Source: Chloroflexota bacterium
GTDB lineage: Bacteria; Chloroflexota; UBA11872
Assembly: GCA_026706485.1 (NCBI GenBank)
Contig: JAPOYR010000010.1
Coordinates: 145,798 to 209,797 of the forward strand
Direction: 5' to 3'
DNA length: 64,000 nucleotides
The notes below the pieces were generated by a model. It was not told the origin of the DNA, made no database searches, and saw only the letters and a program-made list of their open reading frames with translations. Positions 45,748 to 63,179 of this stretch are shown here, in pieces. Both the position numbers and the translations under genes were made by a program. How positions within the stretch are numbered: the first letter of the stretch is position 1; each line of letters begins with the position of its first letter.

Positions 45748-47403
45748 TTGCCGAGGGCCCACTTCATTCGGTGGAGTCCCGATGACTCGGCCGTGTTCTT
45801 CAACCAAGGCAGCAATCTCTACCGAGTTTCGACCGACGGCACTGCGCCGCTCCGGATCGTTCCGGACCGCAAGTTGCGCCTGGAGGTCGGGCCAATGACC
45901 GCATTTGATGTCTCGCCCGATGGGACGCAGGTTGTCTATTCCAGCTGCGCTTTGCCCATGCAGCCCTGGATCGAACACGGTCCGTCGATCACTCGCGAGA
46001 CCGACCCCGAGGGCAACGAGATCGTCGTGATCAGTGAGTGGAGGGATGGTCATCCCCCTTATCCATCCACCTATGAGCTCGCGCGCATAAACATCGACGG
46101 TACGGAGTCGGAGCGGTTGACCGACAACGGGTCCTACGACAATTTCCCAGCATGGTCTCCCGACGGCACTCGAATTGCCTTTGTATCCAAGTCCGGGTTG
46201 TACGTCTTAGCTGCTGACGGCGCGCGGGTTCTGCCTCACGAGGTCCAGGCAGTCGTATCGGTCCAACAACCGCGACTGCCGGTGGAGTTGGAGGTGGTGG
46301 CTTTGCATCCGCCCGCGTGGTCTCCGGACGGCGCGCGTCTCGCCTTCGTGGGCTGGGGGCTTCCCACACAACCGACAGAACCCGTGGCAGCTAAATTTGA
46401 TATCTACACAGTAGGCGCGGACGGCGCAAACCTGCAGCGGCTAACAGGCACGGTGAGTGAACCCTCGTGGTCGCCGGACGGGCAGCGCATCGCCTTTGCC
46501 AAACCCGACGGCGACGACGTGGCGCTCTATACCATTTCCGCCGACGGCTCGGACCTCAAGCGGGTCACGACCATCACGGGCTGGCACCCGCAGTATGGGG
46601 AGCCGGATCCGGCGCGCGCCTGGATTGAGAACGTTGCATGGTCACCCGACGGCTCGAAGATCCTCTACACCTGCGGTTGGATCTGCGTGGTCAGCGTGGA
46701 CGGCAAGCCAGTCAATGACACGCCACTACGCGGAATCATCGCCGCCTGGTCTCCGGACGGCTCGCGCATCGCGGTGGCGGGAGTATTGCGCGATGTTCGC
46801 AGCATGGCCCCTGACGGCAGTGACGTGCGCAGCCTGCCGATTCCAGGTGCCACGGCCACGACCATCGGTCGTGCGGCCCCCAGCGGTCCAGGGTCGGGTC
46901 CGTGCACGGCGGGATTCGTCGTGGCGGCTCCCGCGGCGAACCCCGGGTTGGTGCAGGACTGCGAGACATTGCTGGAAGTGCTACCCGCGCTGTTTGGGCA
47001 GGGGCTCGATCGCTGGCTCCGAGAGTCGCCAATAGAGATATGGCCGGGCATCAGAGTCACCGGCACGCCCCCGAGGGTAACGGCGTTGACGCTTTTGGGG
47101 CATGAGCTGGACGGGACCATACCCGTCGAACTTGGGGCACTGACCCACTTACAGACTCTGGACCTTTCCTTCAACCAGCTCACCGGCCCAATCCCGGCTG
47201 AACTGGCGAAGCTGACTCGGCTTTTGAATCTGGACCTGTCCTGGAACGAACTCAGCGGACCGATTCCAGCAGAGATGGGCCACCTAGCCGACCTTGAACT
47301 GCTTTGGCTTGAGGGCAACCCGCTGACGGGCTGCATCCCGACAACTCTACGGAGCATCCCGGAAAATGACCTTCCGGGCCTCGGTCTGCCGGATTGCGAG
47401 TAA
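45748..47403 (+). CDS. PD40 (TolB-like) beta-propeller protein with C-terminal plant-type leucine-rich repeats, probably frameshifted from its signal peptide
   Basis: Repeated WSPDG..IAF PD40 blades (AWSPDGTRIAFV, AWSPDGARLAFV, SWSPDGQRIAFA, AWSPDGSKILYT, AWSPDGSRIAVA), followed by LxxLxLSxNxLTGPIPxEL LRRs. The in-frame region upstream of TTG 45748 is open back to 45574. Confidence 0.7.
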   Translation: MPRAHFIRWSPDDSAVFFNQGSNLYRVSTDGTAPLRIVPDRKLRLEVGPMTAFDVSPDGTQVVYSSCALPMQPWIEHGPSITRETDPEGNEIVVISEWRDGHPPYPSTYELARINIDGTESERLTDNGSYDNFPAWSPDGTRIAFVSKSGLYVLAADGARVLPHEVQAVVSVQQPRLPVELEVVALHPPAWSPDGARLAFVGWGLPTQPTEPVAAKFDIYTVGADGANLQRLTGTVSEPSWSPDGQRIAFAKPDGDDVALYTISADGSDLKRVTTITGWHPQYGEPDPARAWIENVAWSPDGSKILYTCGWICVVSVDGKPVNDTPLRGIIAAWSPDGSRIAVAGVLRDVRSMAPDGSDVRSLPIPGATATTIGRAAPSGPGSGPCTAGFVVAAPAANPGLVQDCETLLEVLPALFGQGLDRWLRESPIEIWPGIRVTGTPPRVTALTLLGHELDGTIPVELGALTHLQTLDLSFNQLTGPIPAELAKLTRLLNLDLSWNELSGPIPAEMGHLADLELLWLEGNPLTGCIPTTLRSIPENDLPGLGLPDCE

Positions 47404-47477: not shown

Positions 47478-48575
47478 TTAGCCCGCCGACGCTCCGTTCG
47501 CGGCCATGGGCAGGGCGCCGCCCTTGGCCTCGATGTCATCCCAGAAGTGGCAGGACACGAAGTGGCCGTCACCGACGTCTCTGAGCTCCGGCTCTTCCGT
47601 CGCGCAGCGATCTTCCGCCCACGGGCACCGCGGGTGGAAGCGACAGCCTGAGGGCGGGTTCACCGGACTCGGCACGTCGCCGGTGAGGATGATGCGTTCG
47701 CGCTTGGCTTCCAGGTCCGGATCCGGCACCGGCACCGCTGACAGCAGACATCGCGTGTACGGATGCAGCGGGCGCAGATAGAACTGCTCGCTGGGCGCCA
47801 TCTCGACGATTTGGCCGAGGTACATCACCGCGATGCGGTGGCTGATCTGCCGCACGACCTTGAAGTCGTGGGAGATGAACAGGTAGGCCACGCCCAGCTG
47901 CTGCTGCAGGTCCAGCAGCAGGTTCATGATCTGCGCCTGGATCGACACGTCCAGCGCGGACACCGGCTCGTCGCAGACGATGAACGACGGCTGCACCGCC
48001 AGCGCGCGGGCGAAGGCAATGCGCTGACGCTGTCCGCCGGAGAACTCGTGCGGGTAGCGGCTCGAGAAGCGCGGATCGAGCCCCACCAATTCCAGCAGCT
48101 CGCGCACGCGCTGGCGACGCTCGTCGCGGCTCTCGTAGAGATCGTGCACCTGCAGCGGCTCTTCGATGATCCGCCCGACCGACATCCGCGGGTTCAGCGA
48201 GCCGTACGGGTCTTGGAAGATCATCTGCATCTTCCGCCGCGCGCGCCGCTGGTCGTCGCGCGAGAGCTGGACGAGGTCGTTGCCCTCGAAGATCACCTCG
48301 CCCGCCGTCGGCGGCTCGAGCTGCATGATCGTATTGCCGGTGGTGGTCTTGCCGCACCCGGACTCGCCGACCAGGCCCAGGGTCTCGCCCGCGTTCAGCT
48401 CGAAGCTGATGCCGTCAACCGCCCGCACCAGCCCGGACTGGCGGCGAATGATGAATCCGCGCATCACGGGGAAGTATTTGGTGAGCCCGTTGACCGTCAG
48501 CAGCGTTTCGCCATTGGCGGAGCCGTTGCGGCTCGAAGCGCTCGTCATCGTCTCGCCGGCCCTCGCGTCGCTCAT
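47478..48575 (-). CDS. ABC transporter ATP-binding protein, OppF/DppF type (with oligopeptide-ABC C-terminal extension)
   Basis: Walker [10 protein letters not shown], signature FSGGQRQR, and a C-terminal HPYTRCLL...GCRFHPRCP region. 365 aa. Confidence 0.85.
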
Positions 48576-49636
48576 CGCAACTCACCCGTATCCACGTCCA
48601 CCCAGCAGCGGAGCGACCGGCCGTCGTCGATCGTCTCCACGGGCGGCATTTCCTCTATGCACTTGTCCTTCACGAACCGGCAGCGCGGCGCGAATGGGCA
48701 CCCGACCGGGAGATTGGTCATGTCCGGCGGCGCGCCAGGGATGGCGCTCAGCCGGTCGCCGCGTGCCGCGGAGATGCTGGGCATGGATTCCAGCAGGCCA
48801 ATCGTGTACGGGTGTTTCGGCGTATAGAAGATGTCACGGCCCGATGCGCGTTCGACGATGTACCCGCCGTACATCACCACGATCTCCTGGCAGAACCCGG
48901 CGACCAGCGCCAGGTCGTGCGTGATCAGGATGGCGGCCATGCCCAGCTCTTCGCGCAGGCTCGAAATGAGCTCGATAACCTGCGCTTGAATCGTCACGTC
49001 CAGCGCCGTCGTCGGCTCGTCGGCGATGAGCAATTGCGGCTGACAAGAGATCGCCATCGCAATCATGGCCCGCTGCTGCATGCCACCCGAGAGCTGGTGC
49101 GGATAGTCGTTGGCGCGCTCGGCGGGCGAGGGAATTCCCACCCGATCCAGAAGCTCGACGGTGTGCGCGCGCGCCTCGTCCTTGCTCACGCCCAGGTGCA
49201 GCCGCTGCGCCTCGTCGATCTGGCGACCGACCGTCAGCACCGGATTGAGTGAGCTCATCGGGTCCTGGAAGATCATGGAGATCTTCCCGCCGCGAATCCC
49301 CCGCATCTCGTTGGGCGGAATCTGCAGCAGGGAGACGCGGCCGGCGCGCGTCTCAATGATCTCCTCGGGATCGATGTCCATCACGTTGGTGTCGCCGAAC
49401 ATGACCTCGCCACCGGTGATTTGACCGGCGGGCTGAGGAATCAGCCGCAGCAGGGCCAGCGAGCTGACGCTCTTGCCGCTGCCCGACTCGCCCACGATGC
49501 CGAGCGAGCCGCCCGCCGCAAGCTCGTAGGCGATGCCGTTGACCGCGCGAACGATGCCCTCGTCCGTCTTGAATTGGACGGCGAGATCCTTGACCTCGAG
49601 CAAGTGGCCGTTGTCGCTCATGCCGTTCTCGCTCAT
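48572..49636 (-). CDS. ABC transporter ATP-binding protein, OppD/DppD type (with oligopeptide-ABC C-terminal extension)
   Basis: Walker [10 protein letters not shown], signature LSGGMQQR, and C-terminal KHPYTIGLL...[10 protein letters not shown]. The ATG overlaps the hyuB stop (ATGA), and the stop overlaps the oppF-type start. Confidence 0.85.
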
Positions 49637-51681
49637 GTCGCCTGCTCAATCACTTGGTCCGCATGCCTCGGCAGCCAGTAGTCGTGATACCGATCATCGC
49701 ACTCCACGGAGCAGAAGCGCATCCCGCCGGCGCTCACCCACACGTCGCGCGGGACCACCTGGCCGCATAGCTGGCAATTCGTGACGCTAGTTTGCCACCA
49801 ATCGCCCTTGTGCTCCTCCCAGTGCCCGCCAGTCTCGGACCGGGGCGCGACAGCGACGGGCTCGCGCGTTTCGTCGGTGACGGTCGGCACCGCGGGAGCC
49901 GGCACATCGGCGCGGAGCCTCGCCGTCTCGTCGGCGTCGATCGTCAGCGTTCCGTTGAGCCGCTCCAAGGCGACGCCGTAGATCTCGCGCGCGGCCGTTT
50001 CCGACACGAATCCCTCCAAGACATCCCGGCGCACGGCTTCCGCGGCGCGTGTCCTCGGGTCGCCGTAGCCTCCCCCGCCGGGACTCGCGAGCATAACCTG
50101 ATCGCCCTCTTTCAGCACAATGTTGGCCACGCGCGAGTTGCTGGCCGTGCCGTACTCCTCGCGGAAGGTCACGAACGTGTCTTCCCCGGCGCGCTTCACG
50201 AGCAGCGCCGATCGCTGCCCATCCTCGCCGCCAAAGAGGCCCCAGGCGCCCGACACCATGCGGTCGAACAGCGCCGACACGGTGATCTCGGGCGCCCGCA
50301 CCTCGAGGATCCGCTCCGAGCCAAGCCCGCCCCGCTGCGCCCCGGCGCCGCCGGAGTCCTGCCGCAGGCGATAGGACCGCTCGAGGAATGGATAGCGCGT
50401 CTCGAAGATCTCCACCGGCGTCGACGGGCAGTTGCCGTTGGGGATCACCTGGTTGCTGTTGCCGTCGGCGTTGGCGCGCCCACCCCAGCCCACGCCGTCG
50501 AAGTGGTAGTGCACGTAGTAGCGGTCGGTGTCCGGGTGCGTGCCGCCGAAGAGGAAGTTGCAGGAGGTGCCGCCGGTGTCCGCGGAGACCCGGTCCGGCA
50601 CGGCCTTGGAGAGCGCGCCGATCACAATGCCCCACACGCGCGGGTGCGTCTCGGTGTTGCCGCCAACGCAAGGCCCGGGATGGACGACGTTGGTGAGCGT
50701 GCCCGGCGTGGCAATCACCGTGATGGGCCGATAGGCGCCGTCGTTGTGGGGCACGTTGTTGTCGGCAAAGTGGAACACGGCGTTGTAGGTGCCCGAGGCC
50801 GTCACGCCGTAGGTGCAGTTCAGCACGTGCTCCGCCTGCGGATCGCTCTCACTGAAGTCGGCGACCAGACTTCCGTCGGAAACGACAAGCCGCAGCCGAA
50901 TCCAGTCGTGCAAGGGCACCTCGCGGGCGTCCTCCATGTGGCCCTCGAAGGTGTACTCGCCGTCGGGAATGGCGCGAATCTCGTCCCGCATCCACCGCTC
51001 GGCATAGTCGAGCAGCTCGTCGCTCACCTGGGTGATGCGCTCGACGCCGTAGGCGTCCAGCAGCTCGTGGGTGCGCTGCTCGGCCACGTTCAACGACGCC
51101 ATCATGGCGTGCAGGTCGCCCCACGTGTATCGCGGCGCGCGGTGGTTGGACATCATGATGCGCCACACGTCTTCGTTGTATTCGCCGCCGCGCATCAGCC
51201 ACACCGGCGGCAGGCGCAGGCCCTCCTGGTAGATCTCGGTGGCAGTGGCCGCGAACCCGCCGACGGCCAGGCCGCCGATCTCAACCAGGTGCGCGATGTT
51301 CGAGACGTAGCCGAAGATTTCGCCGTCGTAGAACACGGGCTTGATGACCACGTGCTCCGGCATGTGCACGCCGCCGCGATAGGGATCGTTGTGCACGATG
51401 ATGTCGCCTTCGCGGACGTTCTCCTCGCCGATTTCGGCGATGAGCCACTTGACCACGAAGCGGATCGCGCCCACCTGCGCGGGGCAGAACTCGGTTTGCG
51501 CGAGCATGCGCCCGTGGCGGTCGAAGAGGACGCACGAAAAGTCGCGGCTCTCGCTGAAGATCGGCGAGTAGGCCGTGCGCATCATCGTGGTGCCCATCTC
51601 GCGGCAAATGCCGACGAGGCGGTTGTAGACCACGTTGAGCGTGACCAGATCGACGCTGGATGGGGCGCTGGACGTTGTCAT
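49633..51681 (-). CDS. hydantoinase B/oxoprolinase-family protein with C-terminal Cys4 zinc-ribbon-like extension
   Basis: HyuB core (NDPYRGG..., DFSCVLFD) over ~600 aa, then a ~70-aa tail containing CQLCGQ...CSVEC. ATG 51681 with GGGAG upstream was chosen, because the ORF-track start 51750 overlaps hyuA. Confidence 0.8.
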   Translation of the reverse strand: MTTSSAPSSVDLVTLNVVYNRLVGICREMGTTMMRTAYSPIFSESRDFSCVLFDRHGRMLAQTEFCPAQVGAIRFVVKWLIAEIGEENVREGDIIVHNDPYRGGVHMPEHVVIKPVFYDGEIFGYVSNIAHLVEIGGLAVGGFAATATEIYQEGLRLPPVWLMRGGEYNEDVWRIMMSNHRAPRYTWGDLHAMMASLNVAEQRTHELLDAYGVERITQVSDELLDYAERWMRDEIRAIPDGEYTFEGHMEDAREVPLHDWIRLRLVVSDGSLVADFSESDPQAEHVLNCTYGVTASGTYNAVFHFADNNVPHNDGAYRPITVIATPGTLTNVVHPGPCVGGNTETHPRVWGIVIGALSKAVPDRVSADTGGTSCNFLFGGTHPDTDRYYVHYHFDGVGWGGRANADGNSNQVIPNGNCPSTPVEIFETRYPFLERSYRLRQDSGGAGAQRGGLGSERILEVRAPEITVSALFDRMVSGAWGLFGGEDGQRSALLVKRAGEDTFVTFREEYGTASNSRVANIVLKEGDQVMLASPGGGGYGDPRTRAAEAVRRDVLEGFVSETAAREIYGVALERLNGTLTIDADETARLRADVPAPAVPTVTDETREPVAVAPRSETGGHWEEHKGDWWQTSVTNCQLCGQVVPRDVWVSAGGMRFCSVECDDRYHDYWLPRHADQVIEQAT

Positions 51682-51709: not shown

Positions 51710-53767
51710 TCATGCGGACCCCTCGGTCCACTCGAGCACGGCCGTGCCATGCGGGCTGACGGTCAGCAACTGACCGGGGTGGACGACGGTCGTTGAGTCG
51801 AGCTCTTCGATGATGGCCGGCCCGGTGATGCGATCGGCGGGCGAAAGGTCTTCGCGGGAGTAGACGGGGCAATCGACGGGACCGTCCGACGCGAACCAGA
51901 CCTGGCGCGTTCCCGCCGGTTCGGCGGGGGATCCCTCCGGCAACACCGGCAATTCCGGCTTGGCGGTGTCCCCAAACACGGTGACGTTGAACTGCACCAG
52001 CTCAATGATTTCGTCGGGGATGCGGTAGCCGTAGGTTGCCTCGTAGTGCGTCTCAAACGCCGCGAGCAACTGGACCAGCGATTCAGCCGTGACTTCGCCG
52101 CCGGGGATCGGAATCTCCTCTTCATAGTTCTGGCCGAGGTAGCGCATGTTCACCGACCGCTGAATCTGCGGCGTGCCCGCGAATCCCTCGTGCTCCAGAT
52201 CGGCCGTGGCCTCCGCCACGAGCTCGTTGAGCCGCGCGTCGATGGACGGCGCGTCCAGTCGATCCGACCGCAGAATGTGCGTCCAGGTCTTGTCCACGCG
52301 CATGTCGGCCAGCAGCGTGCCGAACGCGGAGCAGAGGCCTGGATGCGGCGGAATCAGCACCCGCCGGGCACCGATCACCTTGGCGATGGCCGCCGCGTGC
52401 AGCGGGCCGGCGCCACCAAATGCCACCAGGCTGAACTGCCGCGGGTCCAGGCCGCGCCGCACGGTGAGCAGGCGCATGGCCTCCGCGATGTTCTCGACGG
52501 CGATATCCAGCACGGCCTGAGCGGTGGCCTCCGGACTGAGGCCGAGCGTGCCGCCAAGATCGGATAGGGCGCGGTGTGCGAGGTCGGCATTCAGCCGAAC
52601 CTCGCCGCCAAGGAAGTTTTCGGGATTGAGCCGGCCAAGCACCACGTTGGCGTCCGTGACCGTCGGCTCGGCGCCGCCCTGCGCGTAGCACACCGGGCCC
52701 GGCACGGCGCCGGCGCTCTGGGGCCCGGCCTGGAGCAATCCGCCGCGGTTGACCCAGGCAATGGACCCGCCACCGGCGCCCATGGTCGTCATCTCGATGA
52801 ACGGCGCCGCGACCGGCAGGCCGAATTCGATCTCCCACGCCGTGGTGTAGCCGATGGCTCCGTCGTCCACCACGCCGACATCCGTGCTGGTGCCGCCCAT
52901 GTCGAAGCTGATGATGTTGTCGTCGTTGAGCGATTCGGCGTAGTACTTCGCCGCGATGATCCCGCCCGGCAGGCCGGATAGCACCGTCTGCGCCGGCCGG
53001 TCGGCCGCGGATTCCGCCAGCATCTGGCCGCCGTTGGACTTCATCACCGCCCACGAGCGAGTGTTCCCCCACGCCGCAAGTCCGTCGTCCAACGCGTGGA
53101 TGAACCCTTGCAAGAGCGGCCGGATGTAGGCATCCGCGATGGTCGTGCTGGCCCGGTCGTACTCCCGCCAGATCGGCGCGACCTCGTGCGACAGCGAAAT
53201 CGACAGCTCGGGGAACTCGCCGGCCAGGTACTCGCGGATCATGCGCTCGTGGTCGGGCTTGACGTACGAGAACAAGCAATTGACCGCCACCGCCACAGCC
53301 CCGTTGGTGCGTTCGTCCAGCCGCTCGCGCAGCATGTCGCCGAGACTGCCGAGGGCTTCCGGCGTCAACGGGTCCACGACGGCGCCCATGTAGTCGAGCC
53401 GCTCCGCCACGCCCAGGCAATCGCGCCGCGTGACCAAGGGCTCCGGTCGCTCCCAGTCGAGGTCGTAGTGGAATTTGCGATCGACCCGCTGCAGGAACGG
53501 CACGTCCTCGAATCCGGACGTCGTCACATAGAGCACCCGGGCGCCCTTGCGCTGCAGCAGCGCGTTCACGCCGACCGTCGTGCCAAGCACGAAATAGCTG
53601 ACCGCGTCGGCGGGGATTCCGCTGTGCTCGATCGCGTCGAATATCGCGTCGCTGGGGGAGTCGGGCGTCGAAGGCCGCTTGACGACCTGCGCTTCCCCCG
53701 ATTCCTCATCGAGGGCGACGAAGTCGGTGAAGGTCCCGCCCGTGTCGATACCGATGCGAATGGCCAA
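51710..53767 (-). CDS. hydantoinase A/oxoprolinase-family protein
   Basis: N-terminal IGIDTGGTFTDFV ASKHA-fold motif and full-length HyuA pattern. 685 aa. Confidence 0.85.
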   Translation of the reverse strand: MAIRIGIDTGGTFTDFVALDEESGEAQVVKRPSTPDSPSDAIFDAIEHSGIPADAVSYFVLGTTVGVNALLQRKGARVLYVTTSGFEDVPFLQRVDRKFHYDLDWERPEPLVTRRDCLGVAERLDYMGAVVDPLTPEALGSLGDMLRERLDERTNGAVAVAVNCLFSYVKPDHERMIREYLAGEFPELSISLSHEVAPIWREYDRASTTIADAYIRPLLQGFIHALDDGLAAWGNTRSWAVMKSNGGQMLAESAADRPAQTVLSGLPGGIIAAKYYAESLNDDNIISFDMGGTSTDVGVVDDGAIGYTTAWEIEFGLPVAAPFIEMTTMGAGGGSIAWVNRGGLLQAGPQSAGAVPGPVCYAQGGAEPTVTDANVVLGRLNPENFLGGEVRLNADLAHRALSDLGGTLGLSPEATAQAVLDIAVENIAEAMRLLTVRRGLDPRQFSLVAFGGAGPLHAAAIAKVIGARRVLIPPHPGLCSAFGTLLADMRVDKTWTHILRSDRLDAPSIDARLNELVAEATADLEHEGFAGTPQIQRSVNMRYLGQNYEEEIPIPGGEVTAESLVQLLAAFETHYEATYGYRIPDEIIELVQFNVTVFGDTAKPELPVLPEGSPAEPAGTRQVWFASDGPVDCPVYSREDLSPADRITGPAIIEELDSTTVVHPGQLLTVSPHGTAVLEWTEGSA

Positions 53768-54791: not shown

Positions 54792-55769
54792 TCACGCGCT
54801 GGCAAACCGCTTGGGGAAGTACTGCGCGCAGTTCTGCTCCAGCCACTCGACGGTCAGCTTCATCCACAGCTGCGGGTCGTATTGCGGCAGGCAGCACGTC
54901 TCGATGCAATGGGGCAGGTAGTCGGGGTCCGGCGCGTTTTGCTGCAGGATCTCCATGATCTCGAGAACCTCCACGCTGCCGTAGCCGACCGGTGCGTGGA
55001 AAAACTTCGGCTCGCCGGTCGTGGTGATGGACTGCACCCGCATGTCCTTCAGATGCGTCATCACGGTGTAGGGCGCGGCCATGTGGGCGGCATCGACCTG
55101 GTCTTCAACGACCGAGTAGCTGTTGGCGAAGTCGTAGTTGATCCGCAGCCACGGCGACGCGACGCCCTCCACCACCTGCACGATCTCGCTGATCCGGTAG
55201 TCCATGTGGTTCTCGAAGGCGAGGACGATGCCGCACTTCTCGGCGTCGACCACCAGTTTCGACAGGTTGTCGATCATGCGGTCGATTTGCACGCCGATTG
55301 GCGTCTCGGTGCTGAAGTGCCCGAACCGCAGCCCCCCGTTGGGCATGGGCTGACCGGGAGGGCCGGGCGGGTCGGCGTTGACCATGGCGCTGGTTCGCAC
55401 GCCGCCGGCCTGCATCCACTCCAGGTGCATGGCGGCGCGCTCGTGAACCGGCGACCACTCGTCGCGGTCGACGGCCCAGGCGCCGTTGACGGAGCCAACC
55501 CACTCGATGCCGTTCTCGGCCAGCAGGCGACCATTAGCAGCGGCCGCCTCCTTGCCATCCAAGAGCGACGCCGCCGTATAGAGGTTGTCAAAACCCCACT
55601 CGCTGCAGCGTTCGATCCACCACTCCAGCGCCCCGTCCAGCTCCTCGGGCGGCTCGGTGGTGGTGCCATAGGGATATTCCAAGCCGCGAAAGCCGTACTC
55701 GGGTTGATCGATGCGCAACCCCGGGTAGGACACCCAGCGATAGGCCGCCTGTGAAAGGCCGAGTCTCAT
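54792..55769 (-). CDS. sugar phosphate isomerase/epimerase (xylose-isomerase-like TIM barrel), paralog 4
   Basis: From the internal Met MRLGLSQAAYRW, matching the N-termini of paralogs at 41159 and 42163 (FENHMDYRISE, MTHLKDMRVQ). Confidence 0.7.
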   Translation of the reverse strand: MRLGLSQAAYRWVSYPGLRIDQPEYGFRGLEYPYGTTTEPPEELDGALEWWIERCSEWGFDNLYTAASLLDGKEAAAANGRLLAENGIEWVGSVNGAWAVDRDEWSPVHERAAMHLEWMQAGGVRTSAMVNADPPGPPGQPMPNGGLRFGHFSTETPIGVQIDRMIDNLSKLVVDAEKCGIVLAFENHMDYRISEIVQVVEGVASPWLRINYDFANSYSVVEDQVDAAHMAAPYTVMTHLKDMRVQSITTTGEPKFFHAPVGYGSVEVLEIMEILQQNAPDPDYLPHCIETCCLPQYDPQLWMKLTVEWLEQNCAQYFPKRFASA

Positions 55770-55843
55770 GTCAACGCTCCCTGGTCCACCGGCAATCGCG
55801 CGCCGCCCAAGTATGACCCAAATGCGCCCGGCGCACGCGCGCA

Positions 55844-57043
55844 TTGCCTACCATGGCGATCACCCCGCCTGGGTCGGCGCCGCCGCACCGGAATAGAGGT
55901 CATACCGTGGAGCAACCGCGAGCCATCGTGCTGGGCACGGGCGTGATCGGGCGCGTGCACATCGACGCCCTGCGCCGCAACAACGTCGACATCGTGAGCG
56001 TGGTGGCGAGCAGCGAGTCGCGGAGCGTCGCCGCCGCGGCCGACTTCGGCGTCCCTCGCGGCGACCCGGACTTGACCACTGCGCTGCGCGAAACCAATCC
56101 GGATGTGGTTCACGTCTGCACGCCCGACACGTTGCACCTCGAACAGGCCAGCGAGGCGCTCGACGCGGGCGCGCACGTCGTGTGCGAGAAGCCTCTCACC
56201 ACCGACGCCGGATCGGCCGGCGAGCTCTACCGGCGCGCGGCGGACTCGGGCCGCGTGCACGCCATCTGCTTCAACAATCGCTTCTACACGCTGGTGCAGG
56301 AGTTGGCCGCCCGCCGGCGGCTGGGCACGCTCGACCGCGTCATGCTCGTCCGGGCCTCAGTCGCCGACGACACGTTCTGGCTCGAAACCGATTGGGACTG
56401 GCGCCTGCTCCCCGAAATGGGCGGCCCCACCATCGTCACCTCGACCACCGGCAGCCACCTGCTCGATCTCACCAGCTTCGTCATCGGCAGCCGCGTCGTC
56501 GAAGTTTGCGCGGATTTCCTCACGGCGCACGATGTCCGCAAACGACCGCGCCCCGACGGGGGGATGGATGACTATCACGCGCCCGGCGAGGATGTCTCGA
56601 ACCTGCTAGTCCACTGGGAAAACGGCGCCCGCGGCGTGCTCTCGTTGTCGCACGTGGCCGTGGGGCATCCCTACCGCATCCGCGTCGAGATCGACGCCAC
56701 GGCCATGGGCGTGAGCTGGGACTCGGAGCGGCCAAACGAGCTCTGGCTCGGACACCGCACCGAGCCCAACGAGATCGTCCTGCCGGACCCGCGGCAAGCC
56801 ACGGAAGAAGGCGGCCGGTTCATGGACAACCCCGGCGCCTACCGCGAGGGCTTCGGCGACACGTTCCGCCTGCTGTTCCGCGAGGTCTACCGCGCCGTCG
56901 CCGACGGCGGTCAGCCCGACGCGCCGACCTACCCGACGTTCCAGGACGGCTACGGCATCCAGATCGTGCACGACGCCGCCCTGCAGAGCTTCCAGGAACG
57001 CCGCTGGGTCGACGTCGACTGGTCGGCATTCGACGGAAGCTAG
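55844..57043 (+). CDS. Gfo/Idh/MocA family oxidoreductase
   Basis: AIVLGTGVIGRVHIDAL Rossmann fold and the CEKPLT motif. The true start may be an internal GTG near 55906 (VEQPRAIVLG). Confidence 0.7.
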   Translation: MPTMAITPPGSAPPHRNRGHTVEQPRAIVLGTGVIGRVHIDALRRNNVDIVSVVASSESRSVAAAADFGVPRGDPDLTTALRETNPDVVHVCTPDTLHLEQASEALDAGAHVVCEKPLTTDAGSAGELYRRAADSGRVHAICFNNRFYTLVQELAARRRLGTLDRVMLVRASVADDTFWLETDWDWRLLPEMGGPTIVTSTTGSHLLDLTSFVIGSRVVEVCADFLTAHDVRKRPRPDGGMDDYHAPGEDVSNLLVHWENGARGVLSLSHVAVGHPYRIRVEIDATAMGVSWDSERPNELWLGHRTEPNEIVLPDPRQATEEGGRFMDNPGAYREGFGDTFRLLFREVYRAVADGGQPDAPTYPTFQDGYGIQIVHDAALQSFQERRWVDVDWSAFDGS

Positions 57044-57280: not shown

Positions 57281-58267
57281 CTACTCCGGCTCGAACAACG
57301 ACTTGGGCGGCTCGCCCCGAAGCACCCGCGCGACCTCCGCCGCGGCCTCGCGGCGCAGGATGCGAATCGACGTCCGCGAATAAAAGCCGCTATGCGGCGT
57401 GATGATGACGTTGGGCGCCTCCCGCAGCGGTGAGTCCATCGGCAGCGGCTCTTCTTCCATCACGTCCAGGCCCGCGCCGGCGATCCGCCCGTCCTTGAGC
57501 GCCCGCGCCAGCGCGGCGTTGTCGACGACCGCCCCGCGGGCCGTGTTGATCAAGAACACGCTGGGCTTCATCAAGTCGATCTCGGCCTCACCGATCAGGT
57601 GGTGCGTCTGCGCCCGCAACGGCGTGTGCACCGACACGAAGTCGGATTGCCGCAAGAGATCGTCCAGCGGCACACGCTCGACTTGCGACGCCTCGAATGC
57701 GGAATCCGGCGCACGCGGCGAGTGCCCGATCGCCCGCAATCCAAAGGCCCGCGCCCGCGCCGCCACGGCCTGCGCCGTCTGCCCCAGTCCGATCAGCCCA
57801 AGCGTCTGCCCCTCGACGCGCTCCATCCGCTCGGGAACACCGCCGCTGGCGTCCCAGACTCCGGCGCGCACGTCGTCGTTGTAGACCACGATGTGGCGGG
57901 CCAGGGCTAGCAGAAAACCCATCGTGTGGTCCGCGACCTCGCCGACCTGGTAGTCGCGCACGTTGCAGACCACGATGCCCTTGGCCGTCGCCGCCGCCAC
58001 GTCGATCGGGTCCATGCCGGTGCCGTAGCGCACGATCACCTTGCAGCGCTCCAGGGCATCCACGACGCGTGCCGTGATTGGCGCGTACTGTTCGAGCAAA
58101 CCGTCGGCGTCGGCCACCTTCTCGATCAGCGCGTCTTCCGTGAAGCATTGCTCCACGACCAGCTCGGCGCCGATGGGATCGAGCTCGGCCTGCTCGATCA
58201 CCGGCGGCATCTCGAAATCGCAGTCGGTGATCACGACCCGGAAGCGGGGCTCGGTCATTGGCGCCAT
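57281..58267 (-). CDS. D-isomer-specific 2-hydroxyacid dehydrogenase (second copy)
   Basis: GLIGLGQTAQAVA NAD-binding motif and the 2-HADH catalytic domain. 328 aa. Confidence 0.8.
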   Translation of the reverse strand: MAPMTEPRFRVVITDCDFEMPPVIEQAELDPIGAELVVEQCFTEDALIEKVADADGLLEQYAPITARVVDALERCKVIVRYGTGMDPIDVAAATAKGIVVCNVRDYQVGEVADHTMGFLLALARHIVVYNDDVRAGVWDASGGVPERMERVEGQTLGLIGLGQTAQAVAARARAFGLRAIGHSPRAPDSAFEASQVERVPLDDLLRQSDFVSVHTPLRAQTHHLIGEAEIDLMKPSVFLINTARGAVVDNAALARALKDGRIAGAGLDVMEEEPLPMDSPLREAPNVIITPHSGFYSRTSIRILRREAAAEVARVLRGEPPKSLFEPE

Positions 58268-58316
58268 CCAATCACGGGGCAGTCACCACGCCTGAGCGCG
58301 GACCAACGTCGCCTGG

Positions 58317-58985
58317 CTACAGAATGCCGTATTCCTTGAAGACCTCGCCCACGTCGCGACCGGTCGCCAGAATCTCGCGCACGTTGGATTCACCCCGTCC
58401 CTTGGCCTCGGCGCGGTCCAGCACTTCGGCCGCGGCCTCGCCCGGAACTACCACGACGCCCATGTCGTCGCCGACGATCACGTCGCCGTATTCAACCCGC
58501 GCCCCGGCGCAGTCGATGGGCTGGCCCCACTCGATGCCCTCGCAACGGCCCTCGGAGTCAACCGCACTTTGGCCGACCGCGAACACCGGAAAGTCGATCT
58601 CCTCGATCTCATGCACGTCGCGAGTCAAGCCGTCGATCACGCAGCCCACCGCGCCCCGCGTCTGCGCCGAGGTGCTCAGCAGGCCGCCCCACACGCCCGA
58701 CTCGTAGTGGCCCGTCGTGGTGATGACCAGCACGTCGTTGGGCCGCATGGCGCGAAACGCCTCGAACAGCACCTCGTACGGTTCGTCCGGCGGCCGGTAG
58801 ACCGCCGTCTGCAAAAGCGGCAGCGCCCGGCCCACGATGCGGGCGCCCGGATACATCGGGCGCACGTCGTGCCGCATGGCTTGCACCGGCACGCCCATGC
58901 GGTCGAGGCTGTCGGCGATCAGGGCGGAGTGCAGCGCCTGGAATCGCTGCCGCGTGGCATCGTCGAACTCGGGCGCCTGGCTCAT
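58317..58985 (-). CDS. RraA-family protein (RNase E regulator RraA / 4-hydroxy-4-methyl-2-oxoglutarate aldolase-like)
   Basis: RraA/MenG-like fold motifs (GDVLVITTTG, VIDGLTRD). Its start overlaps the hyuB2 stop by 4 bp. Confidence 0.7.
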   Translation of the reverse strand: MSQAPEFDDATRQRFQALHSALIADSLDRMGVPVQAMRHDVRPMYPGARIVGRALPLLQTAVYRPPDEPYEVLFEAFRAMRPNDVLVITTTGHYESGVWGGLLSTSAQTRGAVGCVIDGLTRDVHEIEEIDFPVFAVGQSAVDSEGRCEGIEWGQPIDCAGARVEYGDVIVGDDMGVVVVPGEAAAEVLDRAEAKGRGESNVREILATGRDVGEVFKEYGIL

Positions 58986-60784
58986 TCCGCGGCTCCATTG
59001 GCAGTGCGGCGCTGGTCCGTTTCGACGAGCTCGGCGCGGCCAGCCGCCACGTTGACGGCCACACCGTACATTTCACGGGCATCCTCGGGTTCGAGCAGCA
59101 AATCCCGTACGTCTTCGAGCACCAGCGCCGGGTCACGCTCACGCGGATCGCCGTAGCCGCCTCCGCCGGGCGTGCGCAACAGGATCTGGTCGCCGATGTC
59201 AAGCACGACGTTCGAGAACTTTCCATCGGAGATGGTGTCGAACATCTCGCGAGCCGTCCGCCACTCGGTTTCCCCGGCGCGTCGGAAAAGCAGCGCCGTC
59301 GTGCCGCCCTCCGCCCCACCGTGCAATCCCCACGGCCGGTTGGACGTGCGGTTGAGATGCGCGCTCACGGTGATCGGCAAGAGGCAGGTCCAGGTGCGTT
59401 GCACGCCATGGCCGCCGCGATAGGCCCCCGCGCCCGCGCCGCCCTCGGCAATCGAGTACTCGTCCAATCGCACCGGGTAGCGCGTCTCCCACACTTCGCA
59501 CGGCGCGTTGAGGCAGTTGCCGTTCTTCACGATCTGAGCGTCGTTGCCGTCGGCGTCGCGCCGGCCGCCCCAGCCCATGCCCTCGTGATGCAGGATGACG
59601 AAGGGTTCGCCCGTGTCGATGTTCGTGCCGTAGAACCCCAGCAGGCCGCAGGTGCCGCCGTCCGCCGCCGAGCTGCGATCGCTGGCCTGTGCGAAGGCGG
59701 CCAAAAGGATGTCCACCGTCGTGGGATAGGTATCGGAGTTCCCGCCCACGCACGAGCCGGGATAGTTCACATTCACGATTGACCCCGGCGGCGCCACGAT
59801 GGCAATGGGCCGGTAGGCGCCGTGATTCCACGGAATGGCGTTGTCGATCATGTGGAAGATGCCGGCATAGGTCGCCGACGCCGTGGTGCCGAACGACTGG
59901 TTGATCGCCCCGGCCGCCTGCGGGTCCGACCCGGTGTAGTCGACGATCACCTCGTCGCCGCGGATCACCACCGTGGCCCGGATTTTCCAGGGACGATCGG
60001 GAATCACGCCGTCGTCCTCCAGGAAGCCCTCGGCGGTGTAGGCGCCATCCGGCAGCCGGTCGAGCGCCTGGCGCATCAGCACTTCCGACACATCCTTGAT
60101 CTGGCCCGAAAGCTCGCGAAATCGCTCGACGCCAAGCTTCTCCACCAGGCCCACGATGCGGCGTTCGGCCAGGTAGGTCGAGCCCACCATCGCCATCAGG
60201 TCGCCGCGCGAGACCTTGGGCGTGCGCACGTTCGACGTGATGATGGCGAAGATATCTTCGACCGGCTCGTCGTCCTGGTAGATCTTGATCGGCGGCAGCC
60301 GCAGGCCCTCCTGGAAGATGTTGCGCGTGTCGCCAAAGGCCGCCGGCACCATGCCGCCGATATCCGTCATGTGCGCGATGTTGGCCGCGTAGGCCACCAC
60401 CGCGCCCTCGTAGAAGCAGGGCTTCAACGTCATGAACTCGGGCAGGTGACAGCCGCCGCGATAGGGGTCGTTGTGGAGGATCACGTCGCCCGGGTGCATG
60501 TTGTCCGGCCCGACCTCTTTGATCGCCCACTCGACGGTGTGCACGATGGCGCCGATGTGCGCCGGGCAGAAGTCGCCCTGCGCGATCATCTCGCCCTGTG
60601 CGTCGAAGACGACGCACGAGAAGTCGCGCGCCTCGTTGAACATGGTCGAGTAGGAGGTGCGCAGCATGGCTACGCCCATCTCCTCGCAGATGCCCACCAG
60701 GCTGTTGCGTGTGACCTCCAGCTCCACCGGATCGTCGATGTGCAGGTCGGCGACGCTGCGTTTCGGATCGGTATCTCGGGCCAT
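58982..60784 (-). CDS. hydantoinase B/oxoprolinase-family protein (second copy, no zinc-ribbon tail, no adjacent HyuA)
   Basis: 600 aa, clearly paralogous to 49633..51681 (for example DFSCVVFD, HNDPYRGGCHLPE). Confidence 0.8.
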   Translation of the reverse strand: MARDTDPKRSVADLHIDDPVELEVTRNSLVGICEEMGVAMLRTSYSTMFNEARDFSCVVFDAQGEMIAQGDFCPAHIGAIVHTVEWAIKEVGPDNMHPGDVILHNDPYRGGCHLPEFMTLKPCFYEGAVVAYAANIAHMTDIGGMVPAAFGDTRNIFQEGLRLPPIKIYQDDEPVEDIFAIITSNVRTPKVSRGDLMAMVGSTYLAERRIVGLVEKLGVERFRELSGQIKDVSEVLMRQALDRLPDGAYTAEGFLEDDGVIPDRPWKIRATVVIRGDEVIVDYTGSDPQAAGAINQSFGTTASATYAGIFHMIDNAIPWNHGAYRPIAIVAPPGSIVNVNYPGSCVGGNSDTYPTTVDILLAAFAQASDRSSAADGGTCGLLGFYGTNIDTGEPFVILHHEGMGWGGRRDADGNDAQIVKNGNCLNAPCEVWETRYPVRLDEYSIAEGGAGAGAYRGGHGVQRTWTCLLPITVSAHLNRTSNRPWGLHGGAEGGTTALLFRRAGETEWRTAREMFDTISDGKFSNVVLDIGDQILLRTPGGGGYGDPRERDPALVLEDVRDLLLEPEDAREMYGVAVNVAAGRAELVETDQRRTANGAAE

Positions 60785-61270: not shown

Positions 61271-62011
61271 ATGAAATCGGTCCAGATCGACTTTCTCGGC
61301 CACGCGTCGTTCCGCTTCACGGCCCCGACCGGCGAGGTCATCTACTTCGATCCCTGGCTCGACGACAACCCCGTCTGCTCGGAGGGCTTGGCCGACGTCG
61401 ACCGCGCCGACGTGGTGTGCGTGTCGCACGGACACGTCGACCACCTCGGCGACGCCATCGCCATCGTCCAGAAGACCGGCGCCACCCTGATCGGCAGCCC
61501 GGAGGTGGCCGGCTACGCCGACACCCACGGCATCGGCTTCGACACCGACTCCTGCCCCCTCAACATCGGCGGCACCGCCAAGCTGGGCGGCGTGGCCTAC
61601 ACCATGGTGCGCGCCGACCACTCCACCGGCATGCACGGCCAGGCCTATCGCGAAGGCGCCGTATACGCGGAGCCCGACGGCAGCGTCTGCGGCTTCGTGC
61701 TGACCTTCGACGACGGGCCGGTGATCTACGACACCGCCGACACCGGCGTCTTCGGCGACATGGCGCTCATCAGCCAGCTCTACGCGCCCGACCTGGTGAT
61801 CATGCCGGCCGGCGGCAAGTACACCATGGGTGTCAAGGAAGCGGCCATGGCCGCCGCGCTGACGCGCCCGCGCGCCGTCATCCCCTGCCACTACGACACG
61901 TTCCCCAACCAGGCGGCGGATATCGACGACCTGCGGCGGCGCATCGCGGACCTGACACCCCGTACGAGCGTCATCGAGCTCAAGCCGGGCGAGTCCGTCA
62001 GCTACCCGTAG
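61271..62011 (+). CDS. MBL-fold metal-dependent hydrolase (UPF0173 family)
   Basis: HxHxDH motif (VSHGHVDHLG) and the overall UPF0173 pattern. 246 aa. Confidence 0.75.
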   Translation: MKSVQIDFLGHASFRFTAPTGEVIYFDPWLDDNPVCSEGLADVDRADVVCVSHGHVDHLGDAIAIVQKTGATLIGSPEVAGYADTHGIGFDTDSCPLNIGGTAKLGGVAYTMVRADHSTGMHGQAYREGAVYAEPDGSVCGFVLTFDDGPVIYDTADTGVFGDMALISQLYAPDLVIMPAGGKYTMGVKEAAMAAALTRPRAVIPCHYDTFPNQAADIDDLRRRIADLTPRTSVIELKPGESVSYP

Positions 62012-62021
62012 CCCCACCGCA

Positions 62022-63179
62022 GTGAAGATCGCCAGCGTCCAAGCGGTCGCCCTCGATTTCGGTGAGCGGCGCGCCACGAGCAAGCCCCGCGCGTCGTGGA
62101 CGGAGGACGCGCGCGTGGGCTCGCCCATGGCCCGCTATCCGCGCTACGCGGAGGTGCGATCGAGCTGGACGCCGAACTGGCCCGGCGTGGGCGTGGTCGT
62201 CACCGCCGAGGACGGCACACAGGGCCTGGGAATTGGCGCGCTCGGCCGGCCCATGGCCGCCCTGGTGGACGACTATCTCGGCCCGCGCATCGTCGGCGAG
62301 CCGGCGCTGGCGACGGAGCGCATCTACGACATGATGCTGCGGCTGTGCTCGCCCTTCGGCGCCACGGGACTGGCCTCGTACGCGGTGAGCGCCATCGATC
62401 TCGCGCTGTGGGACCTCAAGGGCAAGGTGCTGGATCGACCGGTCTACGAGCTGATGGGCGGCCCCGCGCGCGACGAAATCGTCTGCTACGCCACCGGGCC
62501 GCAGCACGAGTGGCACTTGGAGCTTGGGTTCACCGCCACCAAGCACCCCTGCCGCTACGGCCCGCCGGACGGCCTGGACGGCCTGCGCCACAACGTCGAC
62601 GACATCGCCGCCCTGAGGGATCTCGTCGGCCCCGACGTCGAGCTGATGCTCGATTGCTGGATGTCCCTCGACGTGGAGTACGCCGTGCGCCTGATCGAGG
62701 AGCTGCGGCCGTTCAAGCTCAAGTGGATCGAGGAAGTGCTGCGGTCCGAGGACATGGACAGCCACGCCGCGCTGCGCGAGCGCGTGCCCTGGCAGACGCT
62801 CGCCACCGGCGAGCACTGGTATACCCCGACGCCGTTCCAGCACGCCGCCAGCCGCCGCCTGGTCGACATCCTGCAGCCCGACATCATGTGGGTGGGCGGC
62901 ATCACGGCCCTGATGCGCATCTGCGCCATCGCCGACGCGGCCGGACTCGCGGTCATCCCCCACGCCGGCGTCAACGAGCCCTACGGCCAGCATGCCTGCT
63001 GCGCGCTGCCCGGCATTCCCTGGGGCGAGTATTTCGTCGCCTCCGGCCCCGGAACCGACCTCGCCGACGCCGTCTCGGTCCCCGGCGCGTCCCACCCCGT
63101 CAACGGCCGCCTGCGCCCCTCCGACGCCCCCGGATTCGGCATCGAAATCGACCTTGCGACGCTGCAACCCTACGGCTAG
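62022..63179 (+). CDS. enolase-superfamily protein (mandelate racemase/muconate lactonizing enzyme family), second copy
   Basis: MR/MLE capping domain plus barrel (DLALWDLKGK, MLDCWMS, IEEVLRSED). 385 aa. Confidence 0.75.
   Translation: MKIASVQAVALDFGERRATSKPRASWTEDARVGSPMARYPRYAEVRSSWTPNWPGVGVVVTAEDGTQGLGIGALGRPMAALVDDYLGPRIVGEPALATERIYDMMLRLCSPFGATGLASYAVSAIDLALWDLKGKVLDRPVYELMGGPARDEIVCYATGPQHEWHLELGFTATKHPCRYGPPDGLDGLRHNVDDIAALRDLVGPDVELMLDCWMSLDVEYAVRLIEELRPFKLKWIEEVLRSEDMDSHAALRERVPWQTLATGEHWYTPTPFQHAASRRLVDILQPDIMWVGGITALMRICAIADAAGLAVIPHAGVNEPYGQHACCALPGIPWGEYFVASGPGTDLADAVSVPGASHPVNGRLRPSDAPGFGIEIDLATLQPYG

Follow-up and report, generated by a model that had tools for sequence, protein, structure and literature searches.

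The 64,000-nucleotide stretch analysed here (the window) comes from a Chloroflexota bacterium (contig JAPOYR010000010.1, positions 145,798 to 209,797) and carries on its minus strand a hyuA-hyuB pair, the second gene of which encodes a hydantoinase B-family protein (HyuB) with a small cysteine-rich extension at its C-terminus. HyuB is 682 amino acids (aa) long and is encoded at 49633-51681, with its ATG at 51681 and its stop codon at 49633-49635. The longest reading of this open reading frame (ORF) would start at 51750, give 705 aa and overlap hyuA by 41 nucleotides (nt); we place the start at the ATG at 51681 because homologs and orthologs are also 682 aa long. The three parts of the protein and its partner gene are as follows:

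49909..51681, minus strand: HyuB catalytic core, residues 1-591, Hydantoinase_B fold
49831..49908, minus strand: linker, HyuB residues 592-617, 26 aa, DVPAPAVPTVTDETREPVAVAPRSET
49636..49830, minus strand: Zn-finger module, HyuB residues 618-682, 65 aa
51710..53767, minus strand: hyuA, the ATP-binding Hydantoinase_A partner (PF05378, PF01968, PF19278), 28 nt upstream of hyuB

A first reading of the DNA (the original prediction) had described a Cys-rich tail on the product of 49633..51681 within 49633-49850; the translation reads as quoted there, and the range brackets the module well. The four cysteines follow the pattern C636-x2-C639-x17-C657-x3-C661 (CxxC-x17-CxxxC; codons at 49774-6, 49765-7, 49711-3 and 49699-701, respectively) and are embedded in the wider motif GxW...WW.T...C636xxC639G..PR..W...FC657xxxC661..RY..YWLPRH. 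The preceding linker is rich in Pro, Ala, Val and Thr, and past Hydantoinase_B there is no above-threshold Pfam match in the HyuB ORF. It had also been noted that a paralog at 58982-60784 lacks the tail. Indeed, this protein of 600 aa, 47% identical to the tailed HyuB, ends directly after the HyuB fold without any such extension, and a six-frame hidden Markov model (HMM) scan of the whole window found no second copy of the module, near the paralog or elsewhere.

The extension is a conserved element. The survey of HyuB homologs that the original prediction had proposed recovered the same tail with all four cysteines in 34 of the 120 best homologs, at 93% to 48% identity, so the cysteines are conserved. 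In the alignment of 35 tails, C19, C22, G23, C40, C44, W4 and W31 (module numbering) are invariant. Relative to the 93%-identical ortholog, the ratio of nonsynonymous to synonymous substitutions (dN/dS) is lowest in the core (0.07), slightly higher in the module (0.10) and highest in the linker (0.18); relative to the 83%-identical ortholog, the core is 88%, the module 76% and the linker 23% identical. The length and sequence of the linker differ freely between homologs, and its predicted local distance difference test (pLDDT) values in the AlphaFold2 (AF2) model drop to 47-67 (67 for residues 591-600, 47 for 601-610 and 64 for 611-620), with module block means of 80-91 in the same full-length model. 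The module is under purifying selection and the linker is unconstrained. A chance origin of the tail is ruled out by its conservation in homologs, its invariant residues and its dN/dS of 0.10, and an assembly or frameshift artefact by the same 682-691-aa architecture, which dozens of independent assemblies share. In about 18 species-level genomes, an in-frame linker of 70-118 nt joins hyuB and the module.

The module is far commoner as a free-standing ORF of 56-100 aa than as a fusion. Most of the proteins retrieved with the tail profile are free-standing, 61-87 aa long, and start right at the GxW motif; in a library of 1.84 billion representatives there were 660 matches at E<=1e-3 and 117 at E<=1e-10. 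When the 145 top matches were classified, 98 were stand-alone proteins of <=100 aa and 27 were multi-repeat FCS proteins of other families, the rest being 10 HyuB-module fusion fragments and 10 longer or unclassified proteins, including gene-call fragments of fused forms. As an independent test, the peptide pattern [YF]xxYWLPRYG alone was run against the species genomes of GTDB; this gave 55 loci, and each of the 55 has the module either fused to hyuB or directly adjoining hyuB or hyuA. These loci belong to Chloroflexota (29), Actinomycetota (21; Gaiellales, Thermoleophilia and relatives), Acidobacteriota (2), Spirochaetia (1) and Gammaproteobacteria (1), with one unclassified. Nine further loci, fetched by other routes, have the same linkage. 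The resulting 64 module-bearing loci hold 66 module copies (locus L008, which has no module, is excluded), arranged as follows:

about 18 copies: clear in-frame C-terminal fusions, all in Chloroflexota
2 copies: ambiguous fusions in frameshift-ridden assemblies (L063, L064)
38 copies: separate ORF directly downstream of hyuB
6 copies: separate ORF directly upstream of hyuA
2 copies: module at the locus end

With ZnF for the Zn-finger ORF, the gene orders seen are hyuA-hyuB-ZnF, hyuB-ZnF-hyuA and ZnF-hyuA-hyuB. In L001 and L009, a hyuA is followed by a hyuB of 599 aa and a ZnF of 81 aa with overlapping stop and start codons; L004 has hyuB-ZnF-hyuA; in L003 and L006, the ZnF precedes a fused hyuAB of 1272-1278 aa, and each has a second ZnF after a second hyuB. 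For the tail-less HyuB relatives at 72% and 61% identity, the module is the next ORF. The 75%-identical P0021 (L008) is a solitary hyuB with neither hyuA nor module. HyuB is the fusion partner in every fusion seen and HyuA never is, the module being C-terminal in the approximately 18 genomes and N-terminal in P0212; therefore, a Rosetta-stone argument can be made for contact with HyuB. P0212 itself, one of the 10 fusion fragments, is 199 aa long; in it the module comes first and the start of the HyuB domain follows, an order opposite to that of the window protein. The original prediction had raised the possibility of a new variant of the HyuB family, and this reading holds: the Cys4 module is conserved and is also found split off as a small gene beside hyuA and hyuB.

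Several genomes carry more than one such system. In L003 (5327-12204) and L006 (5345-12219), two module-bearing HyuAB systems lie side by side, the first consisting of an RraA-like gene, a ZnF and the fused HyuAB of ~1275 aa, and the second of a hyuB and a ZnF with Cys3His ligands; RidA/YjgF and D-Ser-dehydratase-like genes lie between them, with NicX and a peptide ABC transporter nearby. Gaiellales and Thermoleophilia metagenome-assembled genomes (MAGs) contain two convergent hyuAB operons ~2 kb apart (L043, L046-L048, L052, L053, L057-L059, L061, L062 and L065, of which L053 and L061 are on the same contig, as are L052 and L065). Where the far end is readable, the paired operons have differing orders, hyuA-hyuB-ZnF and ZnF-hyuA-hyuB.

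What the four cysteines do is suggested by their substitutions. Among 124 small homologs the ligand positions read CCCC in 104, CCCH in 15, CCHC in 1 and CCHH in 1, with 3 pattern mismatches, so that Cys or His alone occupies all four positions in 121 of 124. This restricted substitution is a strong, though indirect, argument for a Zn site, and we predict that Cys636, Cys639, Cys657 and Cys661 bind Zn. The CCHC variant, the only one seen, is the free module after the 61%-identical hyuB (L010, 5090-5308), with its third Cys replaced by His (VFHSPEC). In a fused HyuB homolog of 675 aa, P0089, the aromatic and YWLPRY motifs are kept and three of the four cysteines are lost (YCDLTGK...QFSDIRAA).

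The spacing in the family is CxxC-x14-22-Cxxx(C/H); insertions and deletions in the loop that leads from the knuckle to the third ligand change the spacer length by up to 5 residues across the family. The tail in the window reads CQLC-x17-FCSVEC, with an 'FCS'-like third ligand. The TRASH consensus, reportedly given by Ettema et al. 2003, is C-x2-C-x19-22-C-x3-C. Structure prediction of the tail, another check that had been proposed, gives a confident treble clef, with a mean pLDDT of 86 when the module is modelled alone. In this AF2 model the CxxC knuckle lies between short strands and is followed by a beta-hairpin, the third Cys comes after a strand, and the first helical turn contains the fourth. 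As modelled, the module is a treble clef of the FCS/TRASH/eL24-like class.

Sequence comparison points in the same direction at low similarity. The tail scores 21.9 bits against zf-FCS_1 (PF21319; cut-off 26.6) and 20.4 bits against zf-FLZ (PF04570; cut-off 23.4). Across the 35 fused members, weak Pfam matches recur to zf-FCS_1, DUF7576, DUF2116 ('probable treble clef'), zf-FCS (PF06467), zf-FLZ and the TRASH model, the best E-values over these members being 4e-5 to 7e-6. A PDB profile search found the FCS fingers of PHC1 (2l8e, E 7.5e-5) and L3MBTL2 (2w0t, E 1.2e-4), followed by eL24 and YacG. Judged from these matches, the kinship to FCS/TRASH fingers is at the superfamily level only. The module shares with FCS/MYM/FLZ fingers, TRASH, eL24 and YacG the CxxC...FCSxxC signature, a knuckle followed by helix-borne ligands; it differs from them in having flanks of its own (an N-terminal GxW strand and a C-terminal YWLPRYG) and an exclusively HyuAB genomic context. 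A search of Pfam and NCBIfam for a curated family covering the fused and free members gave only the sub-threshold FCS/TRASH/DUF matches, with no family for the module in NCBIfam, and a search of a plasmid collection for annotated relatives gave no match. Database entries name the fused form 'hydantoinase B/oxoprolinase family protein' and the free form 'hypothetical protein', and a literature search for such a HyuAB partner found no description, probably because all the loci of the genome scan are from MAGs.

The core on which the module sits is a full-length Hydantoinase_B domain: PF02538 matches with 572 bits over profile positions 1-519, at residues 34-565 of the 705-aa ORF or ~11-542 of the 682-aa protein. 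Its closest solved chains are N-methylhydantoinase (7hk5), with 287 bits, and caprolactamase B (6yra_B), with 274; it scores 129 against the acetophenone carboxylase (Apc) subunit and 88 against the acetone carboxylase (Acx) subunit. In NCBIfam, it reaches 346.8 bits against the caprolactamase beta equivalog model (NF050157), below the cut-off of 1000, and 118 bits against ApcD. By these profile scores, the core groups with N-methylhydantoinase and caprolactamase rather than with the carboxylases, and the proposal that the protein is a carboxylase-like member fails on the same numbers; the HyuAB clade is thus placed in the hydantoinase/oxoprolinase/lactamase branch. The core metal ligands D47/H106/E109/H131 align with D41/H99/D102/H124 of CapB (PMC8453981) and are invariant in 67 homologs. 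The catalytic ligands are intact; therefore, the Cys4 site is an addition and not a replacement. The core aligns end to end with its counterparts in CapAB (6YRA) and N-methylhydantoinase (7HK5/9H03), the metal ligands are conserved, and hyuA is adjacent here. The difference lies at the end: those enzymes end with a small alpha/beta domain at the C-terminus and lack a third component, whereas the protein in the window continues into a linker and a Zn finger, and relatives have a small ORF of its own for the finger.

We consider it very probable that the module is a dedicated Zn-finger partner of HyuAB. Our best overall explanation, favoured with somewhat better than even confidence, is that the tail is a tethered treble-clef finger, the fused form of a small partner dedicated to one HyuA/HyuB clade, with a structural docking role; docking specifically, taken on its own, stands at or just short of an even chance. 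In the reaction that we propose, HyuA would use ATP to activate a cyclic amide-type substrate, as in caprolactamase, and HyuB, with an Asp/His/Glu/His metal site of its own, would finish the reaction there. The module would hold a second, structural Zn through Cys636, Cys639, Cys657 and Cys661, fold back via the 26-residue linker, and dock on HyuB or on the HyuA/HyuB interface. The conserved aromatics (GxW, WW, W648 and Y..YWLPR[YH]) could form the docking surface, and the docked module may act in assembly or stability, completing the complex or stabilising it.

The small Zn subunits of the ketone carboxylases are the obvious comparison, and the original prediction linked the tail to them. The gamma subunits are about 130-170 aa long and PF08882/Yippee-like, and their Zn is held by two knuckles some 50 residues from each other (PMC5543143, PMC5214803): AcxC is a Yippee-like protein that binds Zn on Cys74/76/124/127 (PMC5543143), and the Apc small subunit binds Zn on Cys22/25/75/78 (PMC5214803). 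The small subunit attaches to the HyuB-type subunit at its C-terminal arm, well away from the active site, and is considered structural and non-catalytic (PMC5214803, PMC5543143, PMC8453981). The 'Hyd' (hydantoinase/oxoprolinase/lactamase) enzymes are described as two-subunit, without such a small Zn subunit (PMC5543143, PMC5214803, PMC8453981). That our module is a fused gamma homolog and the enzyme a ketone carboxylase is very improbable. Both are indeed small Cys-ligated Zn modules encoded with HyuA/HyuB-type genes (AcxC, 5SVB_C/5M45_C; Apc, 5L9W_C), and hhalign gives a weak local resemblance between module residues 8-52 and AcxC 113-158 (W..CxxCG..W..F.PD..Y..WL), with P=0.0046 for this single comparison. 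This stretch covers the second knuckle and the C-terminal helix of gamma, that is, its C-terminal half; the Apc small subunit does not share this pattern, and by sequence the resemblance is probably due to chance. The hhalign probability for the module is 4.1% against AcxC (the AcxC sequence was checked against 5SVB_C and one mismatch corrected before the comparison) and 7.6% against a profile of 32 gamma sequences. PF08882 has no match at E<=1 in the tail and the 35 fused homologs, or at E<=0.01 in 24 stand-alone and fused members. Neither the PDB profile search, at E<=10, nor the listed fold matches of the module contained a gamma chain, and BLASTP of the module against AcxC returned nothing. 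The module is a treble clef of ~60 aa, against 129-168 aa for gamma, with x17 spacing here and, in the model, its last two ligands at the helix N-terminus; gamma belongs to the carboxylase branch and the module to the hydrolase-like branch. The gamma-homolog explanation is thus largely refuted: the hhalign value of 7.6%, the lack of a PF08882 match and the differing ligand spacing speak against homology and thereby against the proposed link to acetone and acetophenone carboxylase gamma. Of the analogy with a separate small Zn subunit, one part stands, in that the module is also encoded as a small third gene; common descent with gamma is not supported. Most likely, the role of the module is analogous to that of gamma and evolved independently.

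Three other roles have to be weighed. It is possible, though unlikely, that the Cys4 module, being TRASH-like, serves as a built-in metallochaperone that captures or senses the catalytic metal, Zn or Mn, or delivers it to the Asp/His/Glu/His site of HyuB. TRASH-type domains were reportedly proposed by Ettema et al. 2003 to handle metals and not to be purely structural, a point that counts against our docking explanation, too. The Cys-to-His swaps and the buried-looking treble clef, however, are typical of structural Zn, the many conserved non-ligand residues (GxW, WW, YWLPRYG) resemble a protein interface, and the characterised HyuAB enzymes load their metal without such a domain (PMC8453981). 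A little less probable again is a regulatory or recruiting role, in which the finger would be a redox- or Zn-sensitive switch, or an adaptor to the co-transcribed ABC ATPases or a pathway enzyme instead of HyuAB. Fingers of the FCS, FLZ, MYND and YacG types mostly mediate protein-protein interactions (PMC4047054, PMC4083091), and the first codon of the window's DppD-like ATPase gene overlaps the hyuB stop; across all 64 loci, however, hyuA and hyuB are the only common partners, and the other neighbours vary. A nucleic-acid-binding finger (eL24-/FCS-like RNA binding), for example in autoregulation of the operon mRNA, is hardly to be expected: eL24 and the FCS fingers of PHC1 and L3MBTL2, the best sequence and fold matches, do contact RNA or DNA, but the module is slightly acidic on average (mean net charge -1, range -9 to +4 in the small homologs), its conserved residues are aromatic and not basic, and it is fused to an enzyme subunit. 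The structural-docking explanation has its own difficulties besides the TRASH precedent. The monomer pLDDT of the tail is about equal with and without the core, the gene neighbourhoods differ between loci, and P0089 suggests that Zn may be dispensable in some members. P0089 may be a Zn-free degenerate version, hinting that the docking surface outweighs the metal; it is a single sequence, and a sequencing error is possible.

If the dedicated-partner interpretation is true, a strictly co-located Zn-finger protein would add a third component to a branch described as two-subunit, and two branches of one superfamily would have recruited Zn-ribbon accessory subunits independently. We tentatively extend this, at somewhat less than even probability, to the view that the members of a large HyuA/HyuB clade in Chloroflexota, Actinomycetota and a few other phyla are three-component enzymes with an obligatory Zn-finger subunit of ~60 aa, fused or free, recruited convergently with gamma. 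The module clade may also be a functional subclass with a substrate or chemistry new to the family. The small ORF is annotated 'hypothetical' or left uncalled in environmental genomes; many environmental HyuAB enzymes attract interest for the hydrolysis of lactams and nylon monomers, and their heterologous expression may fail or give poor results if it is missing. What is new here is the module as an uncurated small-protein family on a known kind of enzyme, and no paradigm is changed. Annotators would gain a new family of small proteins, recognisable by a clear genomic signature, and the module is testable and useful to them and to specialists in the HyuAB enzyme family.

In the window, hyuA and hyuB belong to a longer cluster on the minus strand, with these further genes:

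54792..55844, minus strand: xylose-isomerase-like TIM barrel, which opens the conserved cluster; conserved in L066 and L067
53780..54754, minus strand: D-2-hydroxyacid dehydrogenase, upstream of hyuA; conserved in L066 and L067
48572..49636, minus strand: DppD-like ABC ATPase (ABC_tran and oligo_HPY), its ATG overlapping the hyuB stop (ATGA)
47478..48575, minus strand: DppF-like second ABC ATPase, same operon, conserved synteny

A divergently transcribed GFO/IDH/MocA oxidoreductase is also part of the conserved cluster, which is kept from this gene to DppD/DppF in the orthologous loci at 93% and 83% identity; the hyuA-hyuB order and the DppD/DppF genes are conserved in L066 and L067. The DppD/DppF pair (47478-49636, minus strand) is coupled to hyuB in translation, neither a permease nor a binding-protein gene adjoins it in the window, and an MFS transporter or MR_MLE gene follows the pair in L066/L067. 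At the other module-bearing loci, the neighbours differ (cupin, RraA, RidA, NicX, IclR, thiamine pyrophosphate (TPP) enzyme, ABC ATPases and GFO oxidoreductase); therefore, the HyuAB substrate probably varies.

The window has a GC content of 67%, and its closest proteins come from Chloroflexota MAGs. The tail-less paralog, hyuB2 (58982-60784, minus strand), is an orphan, with no hyuA upstream or anywhere in 60.7-64 kb. It is flanked by genes for an RraA-like aldolase, a D-2-hydroxyacid dehydrogenase, an MBL-fold protein and an MR/MLE enolase-family member (neighbours at 57281-58985, minus strand, and 61271-63179, plus strand). The hyuB of L008 (5001-6788, P0021) is likewise solitary, with MR_MLE and GFO_IDH_MocA genes as neighbours. 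An ORF of 551 aa (45748-47403) on the plus strand, opposite to the operon and just beyond its downstream end, encodes PD40/WD40-like beta-propeller repeats followed by C-terminal leucine-rich repeats.

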